Assembly (NCBI GenBank): GCA_963789965.1
Contig: CAWBMO010000007.1
Span: forward strand, 69,661-133,660
Reading direction: 5' to 3'
DNA length: 64,000 nucleotides
Source: an uncultured Acidobacteriota bacterium
Lineage (GTDB): Bacteria; Acidobacteriota; Vicinamibacteria; Vicinamibacterales; CAVVIG01
The notes beneath the pieces were generated by a model, which was not told the DNA's origin, ran no database searches, and saw only the letters and a program-made list of their open reading frames with translations. The position numbers and the translations under genes were made by a program. Position 1 is the first letter of the stretch; each line of letters starts with the position of its first letter. Positions 1,432 through 50,373 of the stretch are shown piece by piece.

Positions 1432-1990
1432 GCGCCAGCGCCGGATTGCCCTCGGTGCGGTCCTTGTGGTGCTGGCGGTTGTGCTGTACCGTGCAGTGAC
1501 GTCCCTGGGAGCGCCGTCAGGGACGTCCACCGCCTCCAATTCATCGTCTAACGGAAGAGCCAGGACGGCGAGATCAGCCCGTGGCCCGGCGGCTCAGGCG
1601 ACCGCGCCCGACGTGCATCTTCGCGCGCTCGACGACGAACGGCCGATACCAATCTCTGGGGAACGCAATCTGTTCCGGTTCAAACCGGCAGCGCCCCCCC
1701 CGGCGCCGCCGCGGACGACGCCGCCGCCGCCGGTCGTGCGGAATGTCCCGAGCGTGCCCGCTGGGCCAGCGCCGCCGCCACCGATTCCGCTCAAGTTCAT
1801 CGGAATTGTCGAGGCGCCGCAGTCAAAACCGATCGCGGCGCTCGTCGATTCGACCGGGCGTTCGTTTCACGGCCGGGAGGGCGACATCGTGGCGGGGCAG
1901 TATCGCATCGTGAAGATCGGTGTGGAGTCCATTGAGATGACCTATCTGGACGGCCGCGGGCGGCAGACGATTCGCCTCACCGGATCGTGA
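1421..1990 (+). CDS. PilP-like protein (membrane anchor, Pro-rich linker, C-terminal beta domain)
   Basis: 189 aa. Hydrophobic anchor (IALGAVLVVLAVVLY), PPPAPPRTTPPPP linker, C-terminal FIGIVE..ALVD..YRIVKIG..SIEM pattern as in PilP. Immediately precedes the secretin. Confidence 0.5.
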   Translation: MATERQRRIALGAVLVVLAVVLYRAVTSLGAPSGTSTASNSSSNGRARTARSARGPAAQATAPDVHLRALDDERPIPISGERNLFRFKPAAPPPAPPRTTPPPPVVRNVPSVPAGPAPPPPIPLKFIGIVEAPQSKPIAALVDSTGRSFHGREGDIVAGQYRIVKIGVESIEMTYLDGRGRQTIRLTGS

Positions 1991-2047
1991 AATTGCAGAT
2001 TGCAGATTGCGGATTGCAGATTGCTGATTCATTGCGGATGGCAGATT
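1991..2047. repeat. Tandem heptamer array (ATTGCAG)n, family C, single arm
   Basis: About 8 direct units between the pilP-like stop and the pilQ ATG. The 22 nt TCGTGAAATTGCAGATTGCAGA are identical to the start of the element at 41713. Confidence 0.85.
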
Positions 2048-4587
2048 TGAGGACACTTGTGACGAGACGGTTGAGAGCAGTCGGGATTCTCCTGGCCTTC
2101 GGCATTCTTGCCAGCGGGTGCGCGGCCGGCAGCGCGTTCCGGCAGGGCGAGAAGGCATCGCAGGCCGGGAATCTCGACGAAGCCGTCGCGGCGTACCGCA
2201 GGGCGGTGCAGGCCGATCCGAGGAACCCGAACTACGCGATCGCGCTGCAGCGCACGATGGTCGCCGCGTCCCGGGCGCATCTCGAGCGCGCAAAGGAGTT
2301 CGAAGATCGCGATCAGCTGGAAGCGGCCCTCGGCGAGTACCGCCTGGCGTCGGAGTACGACCCGAGCAACCGGACCGTCATCGTGAAGGTAGCCAGCCTC
2401 GAGCAGACGATCCGCGCTCGTATCGAGGCGTCCCGGCCGCGGCCCGCCATTGAGGCACTCCGTGCGCAGGCGCGCGCGGCATCGGCCGAACCGGCGCTCA
2501 ATCCTGCGTCGCGCGACCCGTTGAGAGTCCAGTTCCCCAATGCCCAGGTCAGAGAGGTGCTCGGCTTCATCGCCAATCTGACGGGCATCAACATCACCTA
2601 CGACCGTGATGTGGTCGACGGCCGCGCGATTTCCGTCCAACTCGACGGGGTCACGCTCGAGCAGGCGCTCAATCAGATCATGACGATTGGGCAGCTGTCG
2701 TACAAAGTCGTGAATCCGCAATCCATCTTCGTGTTTCCGGACACGACCCCCAAGCACCAGATCTACGACGAGCAGGTCATCCGCACGTTCTATATCTCGA
2801 ACGCCGATCCCACCGAGCTTGCACAAACCGTGAGCCAGCTCATTCGAATTGCCGGCATCGCCGTTCAGCCGATGATTGCGCCCAACAAGATCGCCAACAC
2901 GATCACCGTGCGCTCCACCGGCCCCATGATGCAGATCGTCGAGAAGATCATCGAGCAGAACGACAAGCCGCGCGCCGAGATCATCGTCGACGTCGAGATC
3001 CTCGAGGTCGATCGCACCCGGACGAAAAGCTACGGCCTGAATCTGAGCGAGTACGCCGTCGGGACGATCTTTTCGCCCGTAGTGGCACCAGGCGGGGTCA
3101 CGGTCTCGACGCAGCAGGGCACAGTGACCGGCCCCGGAACGGGAACGGGAACGACAACGACCGCATCCGCGGGACAAGGGACAGCGCCGAGCGCCGTCAC
3201 CTCGCCGCCGCCGTTCAATCTGAACACGATCACGCGAGGCGTGAGCACCGCCGATTTCTATCTCGCCGTGCCGACCGCGATCGTGCGGTTTCTCGAGGCC
3301 GACAACCACACCAAAGTCATCGCGAAGCCGCAGCTGCGGGGCGCAGAGGGCTCCAAGCTGACGCTGAAGCTCGGTCAGAAGATTCCCGTGGTCTCGACCA
3401 GTTATACGCCGATTGCCACCGGCGGTGCGGGCGTCAACCCGCTGAGCTCGTACACATATCAGGACGTCGGCGTCAACATCGACATGACGCCGCGCGTCTC
3501 GCTCGACGGCGAGATTATCCTCGACTTGGTCCTGGACAACAGCGCGCTCGGCCCGGACAAATCTGTTGCGGGCGTGACGGTACCCACATTCGTGCAGCGC
3601 ACGGTCACGACACGGCTGCGCCTGCGCGATGGCGAGTCCAACCTGCTCGCAGGCCTGATACAGCAGCGAGACTCGAATACCGTCCAGGGATTCCCGGGCG
3701 CGATTCATCTGCCGTTTTTCAAGCAGATCTTCTCGGGCAACGACATCACGAGCGATCAGACCGAGATCATCATGCTGCTGACGCCCCACATCGTCCGCAC
3801 GCAGGAACTGACCGAATCAGACCTGCGGCCGATCTACATCGGCTCGCAGCAGAACCTGGGCCTCGGTGGACCGCCGCCGCTCATCGCCGCGCCGGAACCG
3901 GAACCGACGCCACCGCCGGCACCTGCGCCCACGCCTGGAGCGGCAGCACCCGGGGGGGCTGCGCCGGGTACTCTCACGGGGCCCGGCGGCGTCCAGCTGT
4001 CGGCTCCGCCTGGCTCGACTCCGGTCCCAGGCACCGTTGTGGTCGTCCCGGCGCCAGCCGTCCCGGCGCCGGGTGCGCCCGCCACCAATCCTGCGGCGCC
4101 GTCTCCAGCGCCGCAGGCAACGCCACCTCCAGGGCCGCCCGCGCCGGCAGCCGGAACCTCGACCACATCGCCCGGCCTCGGCCAGGCGCAGATCATCATC
4201 TCTCCGTCTCCCACGATGCGTGTCGGCGGCGGCCCGTACACTGTTCCAATATCAGTGACGAACGCGCTGGGCCTGTCGACGGTCTCGTTGACGCTGGTGT
4301 ACGACCCCACGAAGCTCCGCATCCGGTCCGTGCAGCAGGGCAGCTTCATGCGAACCGGGGGCATCGACGTCGTCTTCACCCAGCAGGTCAACGCGGGACG
4401 GGTCGACATCACGCTCACGCGGTCGGGGGACTCGACAGGCGCATCGGGCACCGGGCTTCTCGCCGCCGTGCTCTTTGACGCGATTGCGCCGGGCACGACC
4501 GCGCTCACGACGAGCGGCGCGGCAACCGGCCCTGGAGGCGCTGCCATGGGGCTGCAGTTCCAGCCGGTCACGGTCATCGTGCAGTAA
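2038..4587 (+). CDS. pilQ: Secretin (PilQ/GspD family) with TPR-like N-terminus and C-terminal Pro/Ala linker plus cohesin-like domain
   Basis: ORF 1987..4587. The first 17 codons translate the heptamer repeat, so ATG 2038 is preferred. Signal/lipobox-like LASGC, TPR-like helices, secretin N-domains and core (RAEIIVDVEILEV, TEIIMLLTPHIV). Then a ~100-aa P/A-rich linker and a beta domain (ISPSPT..VPISV..LTLVYDPTKL). Confidence 0.85.
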   Translation: MADLRTLVTRRLRAVGILLAFGILASGCAAGSAFRQGEKASQAGNLDEAVAAYRRAVQADPRNPNYAIALQRTMVAASRAHLERAKEFEDRDQLEAALGEYRLASEYDPSNRTVIVKVASLEQTIRARIEASRPRPAIEALRAQARAASAEPALNPASRDPLRVQFPNAQVREVLGFIANLTGINITYDRDVVDGRAISVQLDGVTLEQALNQIMTIGQLSYKVVNPQSIFVFPDTTPKHQIYDEQVIRTFYISNADPTELAQTVSQLIRIAGIAVQPMIAPNKIANTITVRSTGPMMQIVEKIIEQNDKPRAEIIVDVEILEVDRTRTKSYGLNLSEYAVGTIFSPVVAPGGVTVSTQQGTVTGPGTGTGTTTTASAGQGTAPSAVTSPPPFNLNTITRGVSTADFYLAVPTAIVRFLEADNHTKVIAKPQLRGAEGSKLTLKLGQKIPVVSTSYTPIATGGAGVNPLSSYTYQDVGVNIDMTPRVSLDGEIILDLVLDNSALGPDKSVAGVTVPTFVQRTVTTRLRLRDGESNLLAGLIQQRDSNTVQGFPGAIHLPFFKQIFSGNDITSDQTEIIMLLTPHIVRTQELTESDLRPIYIGSQQNLGLGGPPPLIAAPEPEPTPPPAPAPTPGAAAPGGAAPGTLTGPGGVQLSAPPGSTPVPGTVVVVPAPAVPAPGAPATNPAAPSPAPQATPPPGPPAPAAGTSTTSPGLGQAQIIISPSPTMRVGGGPYTVPISVTNALGLSTVSLTLVYDPTKLRIRSVQQGSFMRTGGIDVVFTQQVNAGRVDITLTRSGDSTGASGTGLLAAVLFDAIAPGTTALTTSGAATGPGGAAMGLQFQPVTVIVQ

Positions 4588-4597
4588 CGGTGCCTCG

Positions 4598-5209
4598 ATG
4601 GTCCCTGGTCCCTGGTCCTTCGTGCTTGGTCCGTCCCTGGTCCTTAGTCGTCCCTGGGCCTTGGCGCCTGGTGCACACCACGGACCGAGGACCAAGGACG
4701 GACTAAGGACTAAGAACGGACCAAGGACCAAGGCCCAAGGACTAAGGACCGACGACGGATACACGTTCATAGAGCTGCTCGTCGTCGCCACGATCATTCT
4801 GATTCTGGCATCGGCCATCATGCCGCTCGTGCGCGTCACGTCGACCCGCCAGCGCGAGGCCGAGCTGCGGCGCGATCTGCGGGAAATCCGCACGGCCATC
4901 GACAAGTTCAAGGACGCCGCCGACACCATGCAGATCAGCCCGCTCGACCTGAAGCCGGACGGCATGGGCTATCCGCCCGATCTCGAGACGCTTGTCGAAG
5001 GGGTGACCGCGGCGAACGATCAGGCCGCGCGCAAGCTCAAGTTTCTGCGGCGTGTCCCGGTGGATCCCATGACGCACGACACCGAGTGGGGGATGCGTTC
5101 GTACCAGGACGATCCGGACGCCACACGGTGGGGCGGACAGAATGTGTTCGACGTCTACACGAAGTTCGAAGGAACGGCGCTGGACGGGACCAAATACAAA
5201 GACTGGTGA
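4598..5209 (+). CDS. GspG-like pseudopilin / type IV pilin-like protein
   Basis: Prepilin motif G|YTFIELLVV with Glu at +5. GspG-like body (RRVPVDPMT..W). Start is uncertain: the in-frame candidates are ATG 4598 or TTG 4664, both inside hairpin repeat A1. Confidence 0.75.
   Translation: MVPGPWSFVLGPSLVLSRPWALAPGAHHGPRTKDGLRTKNGPRTKAQGLRTDDGYTFIELLVVATIILILASAIMPLVRVTSTRQREAELRRDLREIRTAIDKFKDAADTMQISPLDLKPDGMGYPPDLETLVEGVTAANDQAARKLKFLRRVPVDPMTHDTEWGMRSYQDDPDATRWGGQNVFDVYTKFEGTALDGTKYKDW
4600..4750. repeat. Tandem-heptamer palindrome, family A (GGTCCYT)n ... (ARGGACC)n
   Basis: ~75-nt left arm of GGTCCCT/GGTCCTT units, apex near 4675, right arm of AAGGACC/TAAGGAC units. Lies between pilQ and the first pseudopilin. 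Confidence 0.9.
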
Positions 5210-5388
5210 ATTGGGTAATTGGGTAATCTGGTAATTGGGTAATTGATTGGTGAATTGAATGCGGTGGATTGGCTGATGGTGGATAGGCAGACTGGATTGA
5301 AACGGCGACTGCGCACGACTCGTGCCCTTCGTGTCTTCAATCGTCTCTTCAATTATCCGATTACCCGATTACCCGATTACCCAATTGA
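5208..5388. repeat. Tandem-octamer palindrome, family B (GGGTAATT)n ... (CGATTACC)n with ~88-nt loop
   Basis: Left arm 5208-5262, right arm 5351-5387. The candidate start codons of the second pseudopilin lie in the loop. Confidence 0.85.
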
Positions 5389-5776
5389 CCGTTCCCCGTC
5401 CGGATTCACGATCATCGAGCTCCTCGTTGTCCTCGCCCTCATCTCCATCCTGGCTACCATGGGGATGGCGCAGTACCGGCAGGGCGTCGTGCACGCGCGC
5501 GAGGCGGTGTTGAAGACGGATTTGTTCGATCTGCGGGACGCGATCGATCAGTACTACGCCGACAAAGGGCAGTATCCCGGGACGCTCGACTCGCTCGTCA
5601 CTGACGGATATATCCGGAAGGTCCCCGTCGACCCCTTCACGAACGCCGCCGACACGTGGCAGACGGTTCCGTCAGACCCCGATCCCAATAATCCCACCGC
5701 CACTCCTGGAATCTACGACGTGAAGAGCGGGTCCGATGGGACCGCCATCGACGGCAGCAAATACGCGGAGTGGTAA
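5276..5776 (+). CDS. GspG-like pseudopilin (T2SS major pseudopilin family)
   Basis: G|FTIIELLVVLALISILA with Glu+5. DLRDAIDQYYADKGQYPGTLDSLV..YIRKVPVDPF is a classic GspG pattern. Start is uncertain (ATG 5276, GTG 5279 or TTG 5297, all in the loop of repeat B1). Confidence 0.8.
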   Translation: MVDRQTGLKRRLRTTRALRVFNRLFNYPITRLPDYPIDRSPSGFTIIELLVVLALISILATMGMAQYRQGVVHAREAVLKTDLFDLRDAIDQYYADKGQYPGTLDSLVTDGYIRKVPVDPFTNAADTWQTVPSDPDPNNPTATPGIYDVKSGSDGTAIDGSKYAEW

Positions 5777-5844
5777 CGGAGCGCAGCCACGCGCGCGAAT
5801 CGAATCAGGCCCACGAACCAAAGTGTCTCGAGGGGCTGCACGAT

Positions 5845-7137
5845 CTACGGAATGATTGTCGTCGTCGACGTCCCGGTTTGGCCCGATACGGTAGTTGTCA
5901 CCGTCACTCTCACAACTTTGGCACCGGATCCTGTCGCATACGGGTGCGACACCTGGTTTCCCGAAGTGTTCTGATCTGGTGTGCCGTCGCCGAATTCCCA
6001 ACGGTAATTAGTCACCTGAACACTGGATGGTGAAACAGTCGCTGTGAATGTGACCGTTGTAAAGCCGGGCGATGGAGTGTTAACGGCCTGAGTCGATGTG
6101 AGATTCACGGAGACCGCAGTCGACCCGCCAACGACGACGACCGTTGAAGCTGATGCCTGGCCGCCGTTCGTGTCGATCACGCTGACAGTCGCCGTCTTGG
6201 GACCGGGGCTATCGTAGACATGCTGCACTGCGAGGCCGGTGCCGGACGCGCTCCCAAGAGAAGCGCCGGTGCCGTCTCCAAACGTAACTGCGGTATTTTG
6301 GATAGCCGCAGAGCTGCCCGTGCCAGGTGTCGCGGTAATAGTAAATGTCGTCGCTATTCCCACCTGCGGATTGGCGGAAGCCGTAATCGCGGCGACGGGC
6401 AGTGGCTCCACGGTGACTGTAACCGTCGCAGACGGCGGGGGAACCGCCGTGGTCGTCGTGCCCGATATGGTCGAGGACGCGACGCCCGCGGTCGCCGTCA
6501 CTTTCGCTGTTTTGCTGGTCGTGAGTTTTGTGCTCGCCCTGCCGCTGGCATCTGTGTTGACCACTGACGGATTGACCGAACCGCTGTCGGTGCTGAACGT
6601 CACGGGCACGTCCGCGATGAGATTTCCGCCCGCGTCGCTGGCCGTCGCTGTGATTGTCGACTGACCTCCAGTTGAGATCGTGGCTGGAAGCGCTGTCACC
6701 GCGATGCCGGCGACACCCGCCGCCCCGATCGCTATCTTGATCGCGCCCAACGCGCCTGTCGTCACGCCACCAGAAAGGGCAGTAACCGTGGCCGTCCCGG
6801 ACAGGGTCCCGGCCTTGAACGTCACCATCACACGCCCACCAGGATCGGTTTCGGCCTCGACCGGCTCAATCGTGCCGAGCGACGTCGTAAAAGTCACGAG
6901 CGTCCCGCGCTGCGGCGGCGTCCCGGCGGGTTCGATCACTTGGGCGATGATATTCGTCGTCCCGCTCAAAGGAAGCGTCGACAGCAGCGTGGTCAGGGTG
7001 ATGCTCGACCCCGCCGGCGCGAGCAGCGCCACGCGCTGACAGCCTATCGTCGTGACGGCGAGCATGCCGAGTGCGGCCAGCAGGAGCGGGCGACGGAAAC
7101 CTGTTATCATGAATGCGCTAACCATCTTAAATCGCAT
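5845..7137 (-). CDS. Lipoprotein with tandem Ig-like (Big) domains and C-terminal PKD domains
   Basis: 430 aa. Signal plus lipobox (LAVTTIGC). Repeated ~90-aa T/S/G-rich beta domains. PKD signatures (VQHVYDSPGPKTATV, YRWEFGDGT..VSHPY). Confidence 0.7.
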   Translation of the reverse strand: MRFKMVSAFMITGFRRPLLLAALGMLAVTTIGCQRVALLAPAGSSITLTTLLSTLPLSGTTNIIAQVIEPAGTPPQRGTLVTFTTSLGTIEPVEAETDPGGRVMVTFKAGTLSGTATVTALSGGVTTGALGAIKIAIGAAGVAGIAVTALPATISTGGQSTITATASDAGGNLIADVPVTFSTDSGSVNPSVVNTDASGRASTKLTTSKTAKVTATAGVASSTISGTTTTAVPPPSATVTVTVEPLPVAAITASANPQVGIATTFTITATPGTGSSAAIQNTAVTFGDGTGASLGSASGTGLAVQHVYDSPGPKTATVSVIDTNGGQASASTVVVVGGSTAVSVNLTSTQAVNTPSPGFTTVTFTATVSPSSVQVTNYRWEFGDGTPDQNTSGNQVSHPYATGSGAKVVRVTVTTTVSGQTGTSTTTIIP

Positions 7138-8017
7138 GAAGTTACAAGGTCAATCAACAGCGGACCACGAGAGTCTGCGCACCGGTGTGACGTCGTGCGC
7201 AGACGTGGCCACGGCGAAAAACGCGAGCGATCGTGGTTACGCCATGGCGGTGCTTCTGGTGGCGATGAGCATCATGGCGATCATGATGACGGTCGCCATG
7301 CCGGTCTGGAAGCAGATGGCGCAGCGGGAAAAGGAGCAGGAGCTGATCTTTCGGGGTCAGCAATACGCACGCGCCATCGGGCTCTTCGAGCGCAAGTACG
7401 CCAACACACCGCCGCCCACACTCGATGTTTTGACCCAGGAGCGCTTCCTCCGAAAGAAGTACAAGGACCCCATTACAAACCAGGACTTTGTTCCGATTCC
7501 CGCCGCGGCGGCAGCCGTCAGCACGCCAGGCTCGACGCAGGCCGGGCGCGGCGGCGCTGCCGGCCCGGTCGCCGACCCGCGCGGTGCTCAGCCCGCCTTC
7601 CCTAGTATCGGCAGCACGGGAATCACCGGCGCATCCGGCGGCATCGTGGGTGTCACGAGCGCGAGCAAAGCCGCGTCGATTCGCATCTATAACGGTGCCT
7701 CGCACTACAACGAGTGGCGATTCGTGTACGCGCCGCCCGCCGCTACGCCAGGCGCCGGCGGCGGCCCCGGCGCCGCCGTTCCGGGTGGCCGGGGCGGGCC
7801 GGCAGGGCGAGGCGGCCCGCCAGGGCCCGGTGCACAGCCAGGAAGGGGTGGCCCGCCAGGGCCCGGCGGCCCGTTTGGGCCCGCCGGTCCGTTTGGGCCA
7901 GGAGGTCCGCTCGGACCGAACGGCCGCGGCCCAGGGGGCCCAGGGCCTGGAGGACCTACCCGAGGAGGATCGGGGGGCGGTCCAATCCCGCCTGTCGCGC
8001 CCGGCCGCGGTCGTTAG
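7136..8017 (+). CDS. Pseudopilin-like protein with Gly/Pro-rich C-terminal tail
   Basis: Prepilin-like G|YAMAVLLVAMSIMAIMM (no Glu+5, like minor pseudopilins). The C-terminal ~90 aa is GGP/GPG-rich. The start ATG 7136 overlaps the divergent gene's start codon. An internal GTG start is also possible. Confidence 0.55.
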   Translation: MKLQGQSTADHESLRTGVTSCADVATAKNASDRGYAMAVLLVAMSIMAIMMTVAMPVWKQMAQREKEQELIFRGQQYARAIGLFERKYANTPPPTLDVLTQERFLRKKYKDPITNQDFVPIPAAAAAVSTPGSTQAGRGGAAGPVADPRGAQPAFPSIGSTGITGASGGIVGVTSASKAASIRIYNGASHYNEWRFVYAPPAATPGAGGGPGAAVPGGRGGPAGRGGPPGPGAQPGRGGPPGPGGPFGPAGPFGPGGPLGPNGRGPGGPGPGGPTRGGSGGGPIPPVAPGRGR

Positions 8018-10196: not shown

Positions 10197-10283
10197 TTGG
10201 TCGTTGGTCATTAGTCGTTGGTCGTTGGTTGGTCACCAGCCCTTGACGAACGTGTAACGACTAATGACTAATGACCAACGACC
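10197..10283. repeat. Tandem-heptamer palindrome, family E (TTGGTCGT/TTGGTCAT)n ... (ACGACYAA)n
   Basis: Lies in the murQ/xerD divergent spacer. The right arm ends one nt before the xerD GTG. Confidence 0.85.
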
Positions 10284-19282: not shown

Positions 19283-19460
19283 GTTTTCAGTTCGGCGTAG
19301 CCGTCAAGTCCTTGGTCCTTTGTCCCTGCGTTCTTGGTCCGTCCGTGGCCCGTGGTCCTTGGTGCGCATGCCACGATGGACCACGAACGAGGGACCCAGG
19401 ACGGACCATGGACCAAGCACCATGGACCAGGGACTGGCGTACGACACGGAACCGAAAAAC
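19283..19460. repeat. Tandem-heptamer palindrome, family A, with extended outer stem
   Basis: Core is 19308-19435 (GTCCTTGGTCC... / ...GGACCAGGGAC). The flanks GTTTTCAGTTCGGCGTAGCCGTCAA and TGGCGTACGACACGGAACCGAAAAAC also pair. Confidence 0.8.
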
Positions 19461-48000: not shown

Positions 48001-48611
48001 GTGCAGATGAGCGGCAGATTGAGATCTCGCGCGATCCTCGGCAGGCCGCTGTTGACGACGCGCTGATCCTCGATGCCATGCCACTGCATCTCGAGGAAGA
48101 AGTTGCCGGGGCCCAGGATGTCCCGGTAGGCGGCTGCCGCTTGTACGGCCTTCCGCTCCTGCTGGTGCGAGAGGCCTTCCGCCACCTCGCCCTTCAAACA
48201 GCTGCTCAATCCGATCAGTCCTTTGGAGTGCGCGGCCAACAGCTCTTTGTCGATGCGGGGCTTGTAGTAGAACCCCTCCGTGTACCCGGCCGAGACGAGT
48301 TTGATCAGATTGTGGTAGCCCTCGTTGGTCTCCGCCAGCAGAACCAGATGGTTGGCGGTTTCGCCCGGATTCCCGCTCTTGGTGAGCCGGCTCCCTGGCG
48401 CGACGTAAACCTCGCATCCGAGAATCGGCTTCACGCCATGCTGCCGCGCGTGATCGTGAAACATGACCGAGGAGAACAGATTGCCGTGCTCGGTGACCGC
48501 AATCGCCGGCATCTTCAATTTCTCTGCCTGGTCGAGCAGCTCCTCGATGCGGCACGCGCCGTCAAGGAGGGAAAACTCAGTGTGTAGGTGAAGATGGACG
48601 AAGTCGGTCAC
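45018..48611 (-). pseudogene. dnaE: DNA polymerase III alpha subunit DnaE, C-terminal region broken by three +1 frameshifts
   Basis: GTG 48611 gives TDFVHLHLHTEFSLLDG (PHP domain). The ORF is intact to 45873. Continuation is RPRLMAAIDAACEHG (+1), then LRMQRDKNEGQAQLFG..EKETLGLYWSGHP (+2), then the OB-fold tail GGIIAACRLLKTRKGDRMAVFTIED (+3) to 45018. Shifts are near 45897-45902, 45850-45858 and 45562-45573 (GGGGCCCC run). Confidence 0.9.
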
Positions 48612-48615
48612 AGCT

Positions 48616-48791
48616 AGTCCTTGGTCCTTTGGTCTTGGTCCTTCGTCCGTCCTTGGTCTTTGGTCCTTCGTCCGTCCTTGATCATTCGTCCGTCCCTGGT
48701 CATTCGTGCTCGGTCCGTGCCAAGCGCCAAGGCCCAAGGACAACCAAGGACTAAGGACGGACCAAGAACCAAGGACCAAGAACCAAGGACC
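48616..48791. repeat. Tandem-heptamer palindrome, family A (largest copy)
   Basis: ~100-nt left arm with internal GGTCCTTCGTCCGTCCTTG duplications, ~70-nt right arm (CCAAGGAC/TAAGGAC units). Fills the guaA-dnaE spacer. Confidence 0.9.
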
Positions 48792-48795
48792 ATCG

Positions 48796-50373
48796 TCATT
48801 CCCACTCTATCGTGGACGGCGGCTTCGAACTGATGTCATACACAACCCGGTTGATCCCGCGGACTTCGTTGACGATGCGTGAGGAGATGCGAGCAAGCAG
48901 ATCGTGCGGCAGCCGCGCCCAGTCGGCGGTCATGCCATCACGACTTTCGACGGCTCGAATCGCGACGGTGTACTCATAGGTCCGCTCGTCGCCCATCACG
49001 CCGACGCTCTGCACCGGCAGCAGCACCGCGAAGCTTTGCCAGAGACGGGTATACCAGCCCTCCCGCCGCACCTCTTCCGTCACCACCGCATCGGCGCGGC
49101 GCAACAGGTTCAGTCGATCGGGCGTGACCTCGCCCAGGATCCGTACCGCCAGGCCGGGTCCGGGAAACGGCTGCCGGACAACGAACTCCTCCTCGAGCCC
49201 GAGCTTGCGTCCGACCTCGCGCACTTCATCTTTGAACAGCTCACGCAGCGGCTCGACGAGTTTCATCCGCATGCGTTCGGGAAGGCCGCCGACGTTGTGA
49301 TGGCTCTTGATCAGGGAGGACTGCCCCACGATCGCGACCGATTCGATCACGTCCGGATAGAGCGTGCCCTGGGCGAGAAAATCGACCTGACCGAGCTTCG
49401 CCGCCTCGGCATCGAAGACATCGATGAATGTCCCGCCGATGATTTTGCGCTTCCGTTCGGGATCGACCACTCCCGCCAGGCGATCGAGAAACAGCGATGA
49501 CGCGTCGACGAACACCAGCGGCAGCTTGAGCCGCTCGTAGCGTTTGCGGATCTGCGCCGCCTCGTCCAGGCGAAGGACGCCGTTATCCACGAAGATGCAC
49601 GTCAGCTTGTCGCCGACGGCACGATGAATGATGAGCGCGGCGACTGTTGAATCGACCCCGCCGCTCAGGGCGCAGACCACGCGGCCGGCGCCGACCTGCG
49701 CGCGAATCTTCGCGGTAGCCTCTTCGACAAACGACGCCATGGTCCAGTCGCCGGTGCAACCGCAGATGCCGTACGCAAAGTTTCGCAGAATATCGAGGCC
49801 GCGTTCGGTGTGCGCCACTTCAGGATGAAAGAGCAGCGCATACAGGCCGCGATCGGCGTTGGCCATCGCCGCGACCGGCGCGTTCGCACTGGTCGCGACG
49901 ACGTCGAATCCGGCGGGCGCCGCAGCCACGAAGTCGCCGTGACTGGCCCATACGCGAATCTCGTCCGGGATGTCGGTAAACAGGACGGCAGGCCCTGAAG
50001 GGCCTGCCCTACCGACGCCTCCAGCTGCGACGGGCACCCTGATCGTGACTGTCGCGTGGCCGAACTCGCGCTGCGGTGCGGGCGCCACCCGCCCCCCGAG
50101 CGTGTGTGCCATCAACTGCATGCCGTAGCAGATACCGAGCACGGGCGTGCCCATGTCGAACACCGCCGGATCGCAGCGGGGCGCGCCGTCATCGGATACG
50201 CTTTTTGGTCCGCCCGACAAGATCACGCCGACCGGCGCGCGACTGCGGATCTTGTCCGCCGATGTGTCGGGCGGCCAGATCTCGGAGTACACCGAAAGCT
50301 CGCGAAGGCGTCGGGCGATCAGTTGTGTGTATTGCGACCCGAAATCCAGAACGATGATCGTCTGATGACTCAC
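48796..50373 (-). CDS. guaA: GMP synthase (glutamine-hydrolysing)
   Basis: GTG 50373 gives [21 protein letters not shown]. GATase domain (GICYGMQ), ATP-PPase motif (SGGVDSTV), C-terminal PPSTIEWE. Confidence 0.9.

Follow-up and report, generated by a model that had tools for sequence, protein, structure and literature searches.

Two neighbouring pilin genes carry long palindromic repeats in their 5′ ends, and these repeats are the subject of this report. The genes lie in a 64,000-nt stretch of DNA from an uncultured Acidobacteriota bacterium (contig CAWBMO010000007.1, positions 69,661 to 133,660; called the window from here on) and belong to an operon in the order PilN / PilO-GspM / unknown / secretin / pilin / pilin. 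Operon features are given in window coordinates and are on the + strand. The secretin gene (1987-4587) ends in a TAA (4585-4587) that directly precedes the pilin 1 region, and a first hairpin, hairpin A (4586-4768), occupies the entire gap between the two genes. Mature pilin 1 is encoded at 4760-5209 (149 residues, beginning Y+1 TFIE5LL..., plus the stop TGA 5207-5209). A second hairpin, hairpin B (5204-5392), begins at the pilin 1 stop codon, and mature pilin 2 follows at 5405-5776 (123 residues, beginning F+1 TIIE5LL..., plus a stop). Close homologues are found in Vicinamibacterales, phylum Acidobacteriota. We argue below that the hairpins are probably read in frame as parts of the prepilin leaders, which are cut off.

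The pilin identity of both genes is clear. The Pfam model N_methyl is placed exactly at ..DDG|YTFIELL in pilin 1 (first mature codon Y 4760) and at ..PSG|FTIIELL in pilin 2 (F 5405), with 23.0 and 30.3 bits (cut-off 21.2), which bears out the clean prepilin cleavage motifs read in both genes in the initial annotation of this DNA. The marks of class-III signal peptides, namely Gly(-1), a hydrophobic stretch and Glu+5, are all present (..DDG|YTFIE5LLVVATIILILASAIM and ..PSG|FTIIE5LLVVLALISILATMGM). Pilin 2 also has a weak match to T2SSG (PF08334; 20.1 bits, just under the 21-bit cut-off), and pilin 1 has none. The PilN-like and PilO/GspM-like neighbours fit a type II secretion system and a type IV pilus alike. 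Against its relatives, mature pilin 1 is 88-97% identical, with a ratio of nonsynonymous to synonymous substitution rates (dN/dS) of 0.03-0.12. The ratio for mature pilin 2 is 0.03-0.12, and for both mature parts together 0.03-0.14 at dS 0.3-1.2. Judged from these ratios, the mature parts are under strong purifying selection and both genes are functional.

Hairpin A consists of two 64-nt arms (4595-4658 and 4692-4755) that are 77% complementary, the left built of GGTCCYT 7-mers and the right of AAGGACC 7-mers, with the apex loop at 4673-4676. The minimum free energy (MFE) of its RNA is -109.9 kcal/mol (z = -8.7), and none of 200 shuffled sequences was as stable. The gene frame is the sole stop-free frame through the hairpin; each of the other frames has two stops. 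That neither pilin gene has a start codon at the usual distance, as the initial annotation noted, is confirmed: the nearest are 33 codons (pilin 1) and 36 codons (pilin 2) upstream of the cleavage site. For pilin 1 the nearest in-frame ATG, GTG or TTG codons lie 33, 46 and 54 codons upstream, at TTG 4661, GTG 4622 and ATG 4598. Of the starts proposed earlier, ATG 4598 stands, 'TTG 4664' is really TTG 4661-4663 (a GCG starts at 4664), and GTG 4622 is an addition. Read codon by codon, the right arm holds no in-frame NTG or ATN at all, so a pilin 1 leader of at least 33 residues is forced, and at least the right arm must be translated if pilin 1 is expressed.

Comparison with relatives makes ATG 4598 (4598-4600) the most likely pilin 1 start. 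Located at the 5′ foot of hairpin A, with the secretin stop 10 nt before it, this codon is also the start chosen in the public annotation of the source genome. From this foot position both arms of the hairpin would be translated. The leader-coding region would then be 4598-4759, 54 codons (MVPGPWSFVLGPSLVLSRPWALAPGAHHGPRTKDGLRTKNGPRTKAQGLRTDDG) with the G(-1) codon at 4757-4759, and the leader would have a net charge of +5. Its left-arm half (VPGPWSFVLGPSLVL) is rather hydrophobic. The alternative start, TTG 4661-4663, is a stem codon 10 nt ahead of the apex loop and would give a leader of 33 residues with a net charge of +4 (computed from 4664, hence one codon short).

Hairpin B has 55-nt arms (5205-5259 and 5336-5390) that are 80% complementary and enclose a 76-nt loop (5260-5335). 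Copies of the 8-mer AATTGGGT build up the left arm and copies of the 8-mer ATTACCCG the right; the RNA has an MFE of -92.9 kcal/mol (z = -7.2). The left arm contains TAA or TGA in every reading frame, and the right arm is stop-free in all frames. In-frame ATG, GTG or TTG codons occur 36, 42, 43, 47, 50 and 54 codons before the pilin 2 cleavage site. The nearest candidates are TTG 5297 (36 codons), GTG 5279 and ATG 5276 (43 codons), all three named in the initial annotation and in frame as it said. TTG 5297 (5297-5299), between the arms, has the best support and is most likely the ancestral start, in which case the right arm alone would be translated. This assignment rests on the relatives described below. 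The codon lies in a small hairpin loop (5295-5302) inside the inter-arm region and has a probability of being unpaired, P(unpaired), of 0.85. A weak motif resembling a Shine-Dalgarno (SD) sequence, GGCAGA (5286-5291), is found 5 nt before it. From 5297 the window reads TTG-AAA-CGG-CGA (L/M-K-R-R), and the right arm is placed between this M-K-R-R and S-G|F. The leader-coding region so defined (5297-5404) has 36 codons, (M)KRRLRTTRALRVFNRLFNYPITRLPDYPIDRSPSG, and a net charge of +7. The alternative is ATG 5276-5278, which gives a 43-residue leader and is the start used by the public annotation. An exact look-up of proteins from the alternative starts, with the apex TTG taken as 4664, found just the versions from ATG 4598 and ATG 5276 among public annotations.

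The idea that the starts lie at the apex or loop of the hairpins thus holds for pilin 2, whose candidates are all in the 76-nt loop, but not for pilin 1, where ATG 4598 is at the stem foot and TTG 4661 in the stem. The related suggestion that the hairpins gate initiation gains no support at pilin 2, TTG 5297 being unpaired in the MFE fold; at pilin 1, sequestration of ATG 4598 may act as a gate.

For pilin 1 the comparison covered 148 related loci from genomes and metagenomes. Orthologues free of repeats have leaders of 5-8 residues, such as MVSEKG|F, MRNQRG|Y, MRKNPG|Y and MKAAPG|Y. The last of these comes from locus L166, which reads TGA-CG-ATG-AAG-GCA-GCG-CCT-GGC|TAT, with the ATG 2 nt past the secretin stop. 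As a rule the secretin stop and the pilin 1 start adjoin or overlap, the overlap being ATGA in many cases. Where the gap between the genes is at most 60 nt, an in-frame start with an open frame is found from -16 to +15 nt of the secretin stop in 80 of 86 loci. This recurrence across loci points to translational coupling as the ancestral arrangement. Alignment with repeat-free orthologues, which the initial annotation had proposed as a check, therefore yields ordinary short leaders whose start overlaps or abuts the upstream stop.

Loci with gaps longer than 80 nt (n = 45) are informative about the frame. In 24 of them the stop-adjacent ATG shares the frame of the mature pilin, and the two remaining frames account for 1 and 6 loci (binomial P = 6e-7 for the bias). 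The frame is open throughout in 23 of the 24. In these relatives selection is, on the evidence of the frame counts, keeping the frame open. The inserts themselves differ widely in sequence. The 236-nt gap of L112 (Ga0070741_10002796) amounts to a 78-codon leader of GFSRF-type tandem repeats behind an ATG 2 nt past the stop; L106 has PGTQYPK four times; L120 and L055 contain other hairpins; and L033 has the leader MKFRRDWGLQKG|Y, which recurs identically in L034 with a clean in-frame insert of 25 codons. Some close relatives share the 7-mer hairpin itself. It is present at varied lengths in L161/L170, L162, L172 and L169, with the homologous ATG still in frame, and the homologous ATG is found 2-8 nt past the secretin stop in L161, L162, L163, L169, L170 and L172. 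In L163 the left arm is lost and the ATG is followed by a right-arm remnant; here the ATG is the sole possible start and the leader has 15 residues. Long forced leaders recur in this lineage as well: in 12 of 154 loci for pilin 1, and in 15 of 156 for pilin 2, no possible start is closer than 30 codons.

Two further observations were made on pilin 1 relatives. L164 and L165 share with L166 (ENA ERZ272548xx contigs) an identical pilin 2 protein and an identical gap between the pilin genes, and differ from it upstream of pilin 1: L164 and L165 have a 41-nt gap rich in (AAAAGGA)n and a 14-residue leader from a GTG, and L166 has TGA-CG-ATG and the leader MKAAPG. The difference looks like a polymorphism among closely related strains. 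In the pilin 1 cluster to which the window belongs, the public gene calls of P0242, P0245 and P0248 start past the cleavage site (VATIILIL... or MVATIILIL...) and lose YTFIELL. The late call in L170 is a caller artefact, as the long leader is open and in frame there; in L171 the foot ATG is out of frame.

The relatives of pilin 2 give a similar picture. Without the repeat the leaders read MKQRSSG|F, MKRRSSG|F and VKRRSAG|F, and the codons TTG/ATG-AAR-CRR-CGA (M-K-R/Q-R) are conserved at the start. L164-L166, whose mature pilin 2 is 94% identical to that of the window, have a left-arm array in the gap and no right arm. They read GGCGGATTGTC-TTG-AAG-CAG-CGA-TCG-TCC-GGT|TTC, and the gene caller starts at this TTG, with the 7-residue leader MKQRSSG|F. 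The spacing of the preceding motif is also shared: GGCGGA-N5-TTG is found in L164-L166, L001 and L169, GGCGGA-N5-ATG in L168, and GGCAGA-N5-TTG in the window. L162 has a TTG-AAG-CGG-CGA start with ATCGGA directly before it. With short leaders in repeat-free orthologues, an open frame in repeat-bearing relatives and purifying selection, the comparison supports the earlier proposal that the hairpin arms are translated as long leaders in both genes.

The two hairpins are members of a larger class. The window holds about 15 hairpins or arrays made of tandem units, in several unit families of 7, 8 and 9 nt, and most of them begin 0-40 nt past a stop codon. Elements start at 4586, 5204, 8033, 10197, 19308, 31355, 41720, 48617, 57469, 58200, 59065 and 62624. 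The 7-mer GGTCCTT family includes those at 4586, 19308 and 48617, with a variant at 10197, and the 8-mer AATTGGGT family those at 5204, 31355 and 57469. On the + strand the elements at 4586, 5204, 8033, 10197, 19308, 31355, 48617 and 57469 have a G/T-rich 5′ arm and an A/C-rich 3′ arm (for example GGTCCTT...AAGGACC and AATTGGGT...ATTACCC), and the mirror arrangement of the 7-mer GGTCCTT and 8-mer AATTGGGT families was not seen within the window. The 9-mer ACACAAAGG copies (59065 and 62624) are without this polarity. Copies are built of tandem units and vary in unit number and length (127-190 nt). No terminal inverted repeats (TIR) or target-site duplications were seen on reading the element ends. 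The same element classes also occur at convergent gene ends and at other non-coding sites in the window. We found no description of these repeats in the searchable literature on Vicinamibacteria or Luteitalea.

An 8-mer hairpin at the junction of the two pilin genes is present in about 25 species with pilin identities of 63-98%. The arms of this hairpin co-vary (AATTGGGT/AATTACCC, AATTGGTG/AATTCACC and AAGTTGGT/AACTTACC), and the encoded peptide shifts with the arm units, for example NYPITRLPDYPI vs. THQLTNSPIHQ. Across species, as far as these alignments go, the pairing persists and the peptide does not. In L117 (JADMIO011564959.1) a hairpin between the two pilin genes reaches -244 kcal/mol (z = -20). 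At the same time, pilins more than 90% identical to each other carry no repeat, one arm, another repeat or a full hairpin, and by this comparison turnover at the leader site is fast. Conservation of the hairpin specific to its locus and above the neutral rate was considered and rejected. Orthologous copies of hairpin A are 0.74-0.88 identical (most of them 0.74-0.78) as against 0.60-0.74 at third codon positions, but a paralogous copy in the window is 0.73 identical. Since the paralogue is as similar as most orthologues, these figures show just that the consensus of the unit is retained, and they do not distinguish selection on structure from concerted evolution of the family. We also rejected the foot ATG as a general, intrinsic part of the 7-mer element: the copy between guaA and dnaE likewise starts CGATGGTCC, unlike those at 19308 and 10197.

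Two elements elsewhere are traversed by open reading frames (ORFs) of their own. The gap between guaA and dnaE (48611-48798, minus strand) is filled by a 7-mer GGTCCTT hairpin of -103 kcal/mol. The guaA stop is TGA 48798-48796, and dnaE starts at GTG 48611 (VTDFVHLHLH...). A 59-codon ORF opens at ATG 48793, 2 nt past the guaA stop, passes through the entire hairpin and stops at TAG 48616-48614, leaving 2 nt to the dnaE start. In appearance it is a relay ORF, by which the two genes would remain translationally coupled. The second case is L100 (Ga0066682_10000955), whose 348-nt gap between secretin and pilin 1 holds a giant hairpin of -189 kcal/mol. An out-of-frame ATG 4 nt past the secretin stop opens a 100-codon ORF, which terminates in an ATGA overlap with the ATG of the pilin itself, 15 codons ahead of the pilin cleavage site.

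We consider it probable that hairpins A and B are palindromic repeats carried in frame inside disposable prepilin leaders of 54 and 36 residues, and tolerated there after stop-adjacent placement. On this proposal they are copies of a dispersed, lineage-specific class of palindromic tandem repeats, with arms of 7-9 nt units, that would settle or expand directly after stop codons. The operon genes are taken to be tightly packed and translationally coupled, so that an element arriving after the secretin or the pilin 1 stop would land at the beginning of the following gene, in the codons for a class-III leader. This leader would stay in the cytoplasm and be cut off after the conserved Gly by prepilin peptidase, and could absorb extra sequence that is in frame, stop-free and net-basic. 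Prepilin leaders are hydrophilic and variable in length, are cytoplasmic under the positive-inside rule and are removed at the cytoplasmic face of the membrane (PMC10191384). The net charges of +5 and +7 are compatible with such a location. Ribosomes terminating at the secretin stop would re-initiate at ATG 4598, 10 nt downstream, and translate both arms of hairpin A into the 54-residue leader; the absence of a good SD before this ATG fits re-initiation. The SD consensus of Vicinamibacteria, AGGAGGUG, is used by about 41% of genes (PMC10783764). Pilin 2 would be started at TTG 5297, exposed in the loop of hairpin B behind the weak GGCAGA, and only the right arm would enter its 36-residue leader. 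Selection would then only have to act against inserts that contain stops or lie out of frame with the coupled start, which matches the frame bias in the long-gap loci. The encoded peptide would be tolerated rather than functional. It changes freely while the arms co-vary, and the same elements sit at non-coding sites, so the peptide does not look recruited; for these reasons we part from the earlier suggestion that the repeats were exapted as leader peptides.

Several points weigh against this proposal. The predicted stem includes ATG 4598 in its base pairs (P(unpaired) 0.38), and no good SD precedes this codon. The assignment of start codons is a comparative one, drawn from relatives, and coupling to the upstream gene is likewise presumed. 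Hairpin A has its closest relative in L171, where the mature pilin is 97% identical; there a 3-nt and a 1-nt indel (net 4 nt) put the foot ATG out of frame, and a left-arm TTG is the sole in-frame start. L171 could be a sequencing or assembly error, an OFF variant, or a sign that an apex-proximal TTG is usable and the ATG dispensable. The choice between 5297 and 5276 is not settled either, as L164 has a further in-frame TTG 7 codons upstream and several relatives have an ATG near window position 5276. With 54 residues the prepilin leader would exceed all that are known to be processed, and prepilin peptidase would have to cleave leaders of this length. The repeat units are stop-poor, which makes an open frame at any single locus weak evidence. 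Finally, the related loci are phylogenetically linked and come mostly from metagenome-assembled genomes and metagenome contigs, where palindromic repeats are error-prone.

Other readings of the locus have to be weighed against these data. The hairpins may be regulatory, kept for the control of expression, which would be compatible with their location in leaders. Hairpin A could sequester the pilin 1 start until ribosomes finishing the secretin melt the base of the stem and so enforce coupling, or the duplexes could be determinants for RNase III or a 3′-exonuclease that set the mRNA ratio of secretin : pilin 1 : pilin 2, with translation protecting the message. The high stability of both stems speaks for such a role, as do the start of hairpin A 0-1 nt past the secretin stop, the largely paired state of ATG 4598 and the G(-1) codon in the stem region, the co-varying junction hairpin of about 25 species, and the stop-to-start ORFs at guaA-dnaE and L100. 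But the occurrence of the same element classes at convergent gene ends and in other non-coding places is at odds with it, near-identical pilins with no hairpin, one arm or unrelated repeats indicate that the hairpin is dispensable, and the co-variation could stem from the generation or homogenisation of the elements. A promoter and intrinsic-terminator scan of 4300-5900 returned nothing, with no terminator-like U-tract, and an Rfam scan of 4300-5700 at a permissive threshold returned only eukaryotic and viral miRNA-precursor models far below their gathering scores, which are generic look-alikes of long hairpins. We regard a regulatory role as unlikely. A related reading, to which we give rather little credence, holds that the elements are kept solely where ribosomes read through them, fused to a leader or as relay ORFs, and act as translation-dependent switches of mRNA fate or polarity. 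Transit of ribosomes would then melt the hairpin, and the 7-8 nt units could possibly shift the pilin frame ON or OFF. Phase variation proper, in which slipped-strand gain or loss of a 7- or 8-nt unit turns a pilin ON or OFF as in Neisseria opa, would be in keeping with units that are not multiples of three and are stop-free in the translated arms, with the wide variation of leader length among near-identical pilins, and with L171 as a natural out-of-frame variant of a gene otherwise intact and conserved. Yet the units are degenerate, with just 2-3 perfect consecutive copies, and slippage should therefore be slow; the shift in L171 involves no whole unit; the palindromic layout is unneeded for this purpose and the same elements occur in non-coding places; and no unit-number polymorphism is seen between near-identical contigs such as L161 and L170. 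Phase variation is thus improbable.

The starts of the long leaders may also be other than those we prefer, namely TTG 4661 for pilin 1 (33 residues, with the basic right arm alone) and ATG 5276 for pilin 2. TTG 4661 is more exposed than ATG 4598 (P(unpaired) 0.64 vs. 0.38), in L172 the corresponding apex position is occupied by an ATG, and L171 is limited to a left-arm TTG. Similarly, GGTGGA precedes ATG 5276 at 7 nt, and several pilin 2 homologues have M-(V)-D-W near this position. However, TTG is built into the GGTCCTTGG unit, so an in-frame TTG arises in every frame by construction, and TTG 4661 has no preceding SD. Frame conservation, moreover, is tied to the ATG at the secretin stop, and in relatives L163 and L164-L166 appear to use the foot ATG and the K-R-R TTG as starts. 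These alternative starts seem doubtful to us. Very improbable is the view that the insertions killed or silenced the genes, or that translation starts at a non-canonical codon near the cleavage site. The lack of a canonical proximal start invites this view, as does the in-frame ATT 5384 in the right arm of hairpin B, 7 codons before the pilin 2 G|F. Against it, the ORFs are intact, the mature parts have the low dN/dS given above, and the frame has stayed open across many independent insertions. A non-canonical start just before the cleavage sites was rejected: the right arm of hairpin A offers no candidate, and ATT 5384 is fully paired in the stem (P(unpaired) 0.01) and not conserved, being replaced by Phe in P0140.

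The remainder of the locus can be described briefly. The secretin gene is recognized by Pfam Secretin (E = 1.7e-31) and also has STN, Secretin_N, TPR and Cohesin domains; matches to PilN and T2SSM_b/PilO lie upstream of it. Its architecture is unusual, with N-terminal TPR repeats and, in the C-terminal part, a cohesin-like domain (Pfam Cohesin, 28.8 bits) behind a linker rich in Pro and Ala. The 5′ end of this gene has a repeat too, a one-armed tandem array of about eight ATTGCAG 7-mers (1987-2047) that follows immediately on the stop codon of the preceding gene (TGA 1988-1990; GTG 1987 overlaps it). The array is open in the secretin frame, and the likely secretin start is ATG 2038, 3′ of it (MADLRTLV...LASGC, a lipoprotein signal). 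A third pilin-like ORF (7052-8017) reads ...NASDRG|YAMAVLLVAMSIMAIMM, has no Glu at +5 and no Pfam match, and possibly starts at GTG 7205 with an 11-residue leader; its long C-terminal half is Gly/Pro-rich and is encoded by 9- and 18-nt tandem repeats (7746-7945). A Pfam scan of the ORFs flanking the pilins found no prepilin peptidase, the rest of the 64-kb window not having been searched.

What would it mean for hairpins to reside in leaders? Prepilin leaders can offer selfish or structural DNA a neutral landing pad. Since the leader remains cytoplasmic and is removed, a hairpin of 160 nt can be accommodated in the coding sequence with the gene product unchanged. If this is true, the length tolerance of prepilin peptidase extends beyond 50 residues. 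Many pilin genes in the phylum are annotated with odd N-termini, and the finding gives a rule for correcting their starts. More broadly, the repeat class is abundant in a major soil phylum, and its stop-adjacent placement may matter for mRNA stability and for translational coupling.

Among known systems, the palindromic elements of Rickettsia (RPEs) and other MITE-like repeats inserted in frame into genes are the closest parallel. They are dispersed palindromes of about 100-190 nt that lie within ORFs in frame, stop-free and translated, as reviewed in PMC10969869. The elements of the window are likewise multi-copy and dispersed, in frame and stop-free at the pilin genes, and missing from some orthologues, and they too are presumably translated. 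They differ in being inverted arrays of a variable number of 7-9 nt units, in several families with no single consensus; the fixed-length consensus with TIR and target-site duplication is not found here. They also lie mainly right after stop codons, and their translated part would be cut off, leaving the mature protein unchanged.

Nearest in position are the repetitive extragenic palindromic sequences (REPs) and their mosaic arrangements, the BIMEs, of E. coli and Pseudomonas, which are multi-copy hairpin repeats that also follow stop codons, including those between co-transcribed genes, and can affect mRNA stability and translation of the upstream gene. REPs are single palindromes of about 35 nt with a conserved tetranucleotide, are associated with the RAYT transposase, and are extragenic by definition. 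The elements studied here share with REPs the position past stop codons, including those between operon genes, but have stems of 55-65 nt made of tandem units and run into the coding sequence of the next gene, and hence are not extragenic.

On the side of the pilins, the nearest known counterparts are the leaders of type IVb pilins and of the type IVa pilins of Streptococcus sanguinis, class-III leaders that are hydrophilic, basic, variable in length and end in Gly. The two leaders here resemble them, to judge from their net positive charge and terminal Gly. Known long pilin leaders have about 15-30 residues and are not known to be encoded by hairpin repeats. The leaders here, of 54 and 36 residues (33 and 36 at the minimum), lie outside the usual range of about 5-30, and leader length varies from 6 to more than 50 residues among pilins that are more than 90% identical. 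Cleavage of long-leader pilins takes place on the cytoplasmic side (PMC10191384).

The opa genes of Neisseria have CTCTT repeats in the region coding for the signal peptide; the repeats are perfect and numerous, and their slippage is proven to cause translational phase variation. The units in opa and in the window alike are not a multiple of three, are stop-free and lie between the start and the mature protein. Those in the window, however, are 7 and 8 nt long, degenerate and palindromic, and the out-of-frame L171 differs by indels of 3 nt and 1 nt. As to termination-reinitiation coupling (ATGA, TGATG), most relatives have a pilin 1 start that adjoins or overlaps the stop of the secretin gene, and the putative start at ATG 4598, 10 nt past the stop and without a good SD, has a suitable position. 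Unlike in ordinary coupling, the ribosome would here have to melt a stem of about -110 kcal/mol before reaching the pilin proper.

In sum, in-frame palindromic repeats and long prepilin leaders are each already known. What is new is their combination: hairpin repeats made of tandem units, their residence in a prepilin leader that is cleaved off, and the recurrence of this arrangement, with leaders of 33 to more than 50 residues and conservation of the frame, across a whole order.

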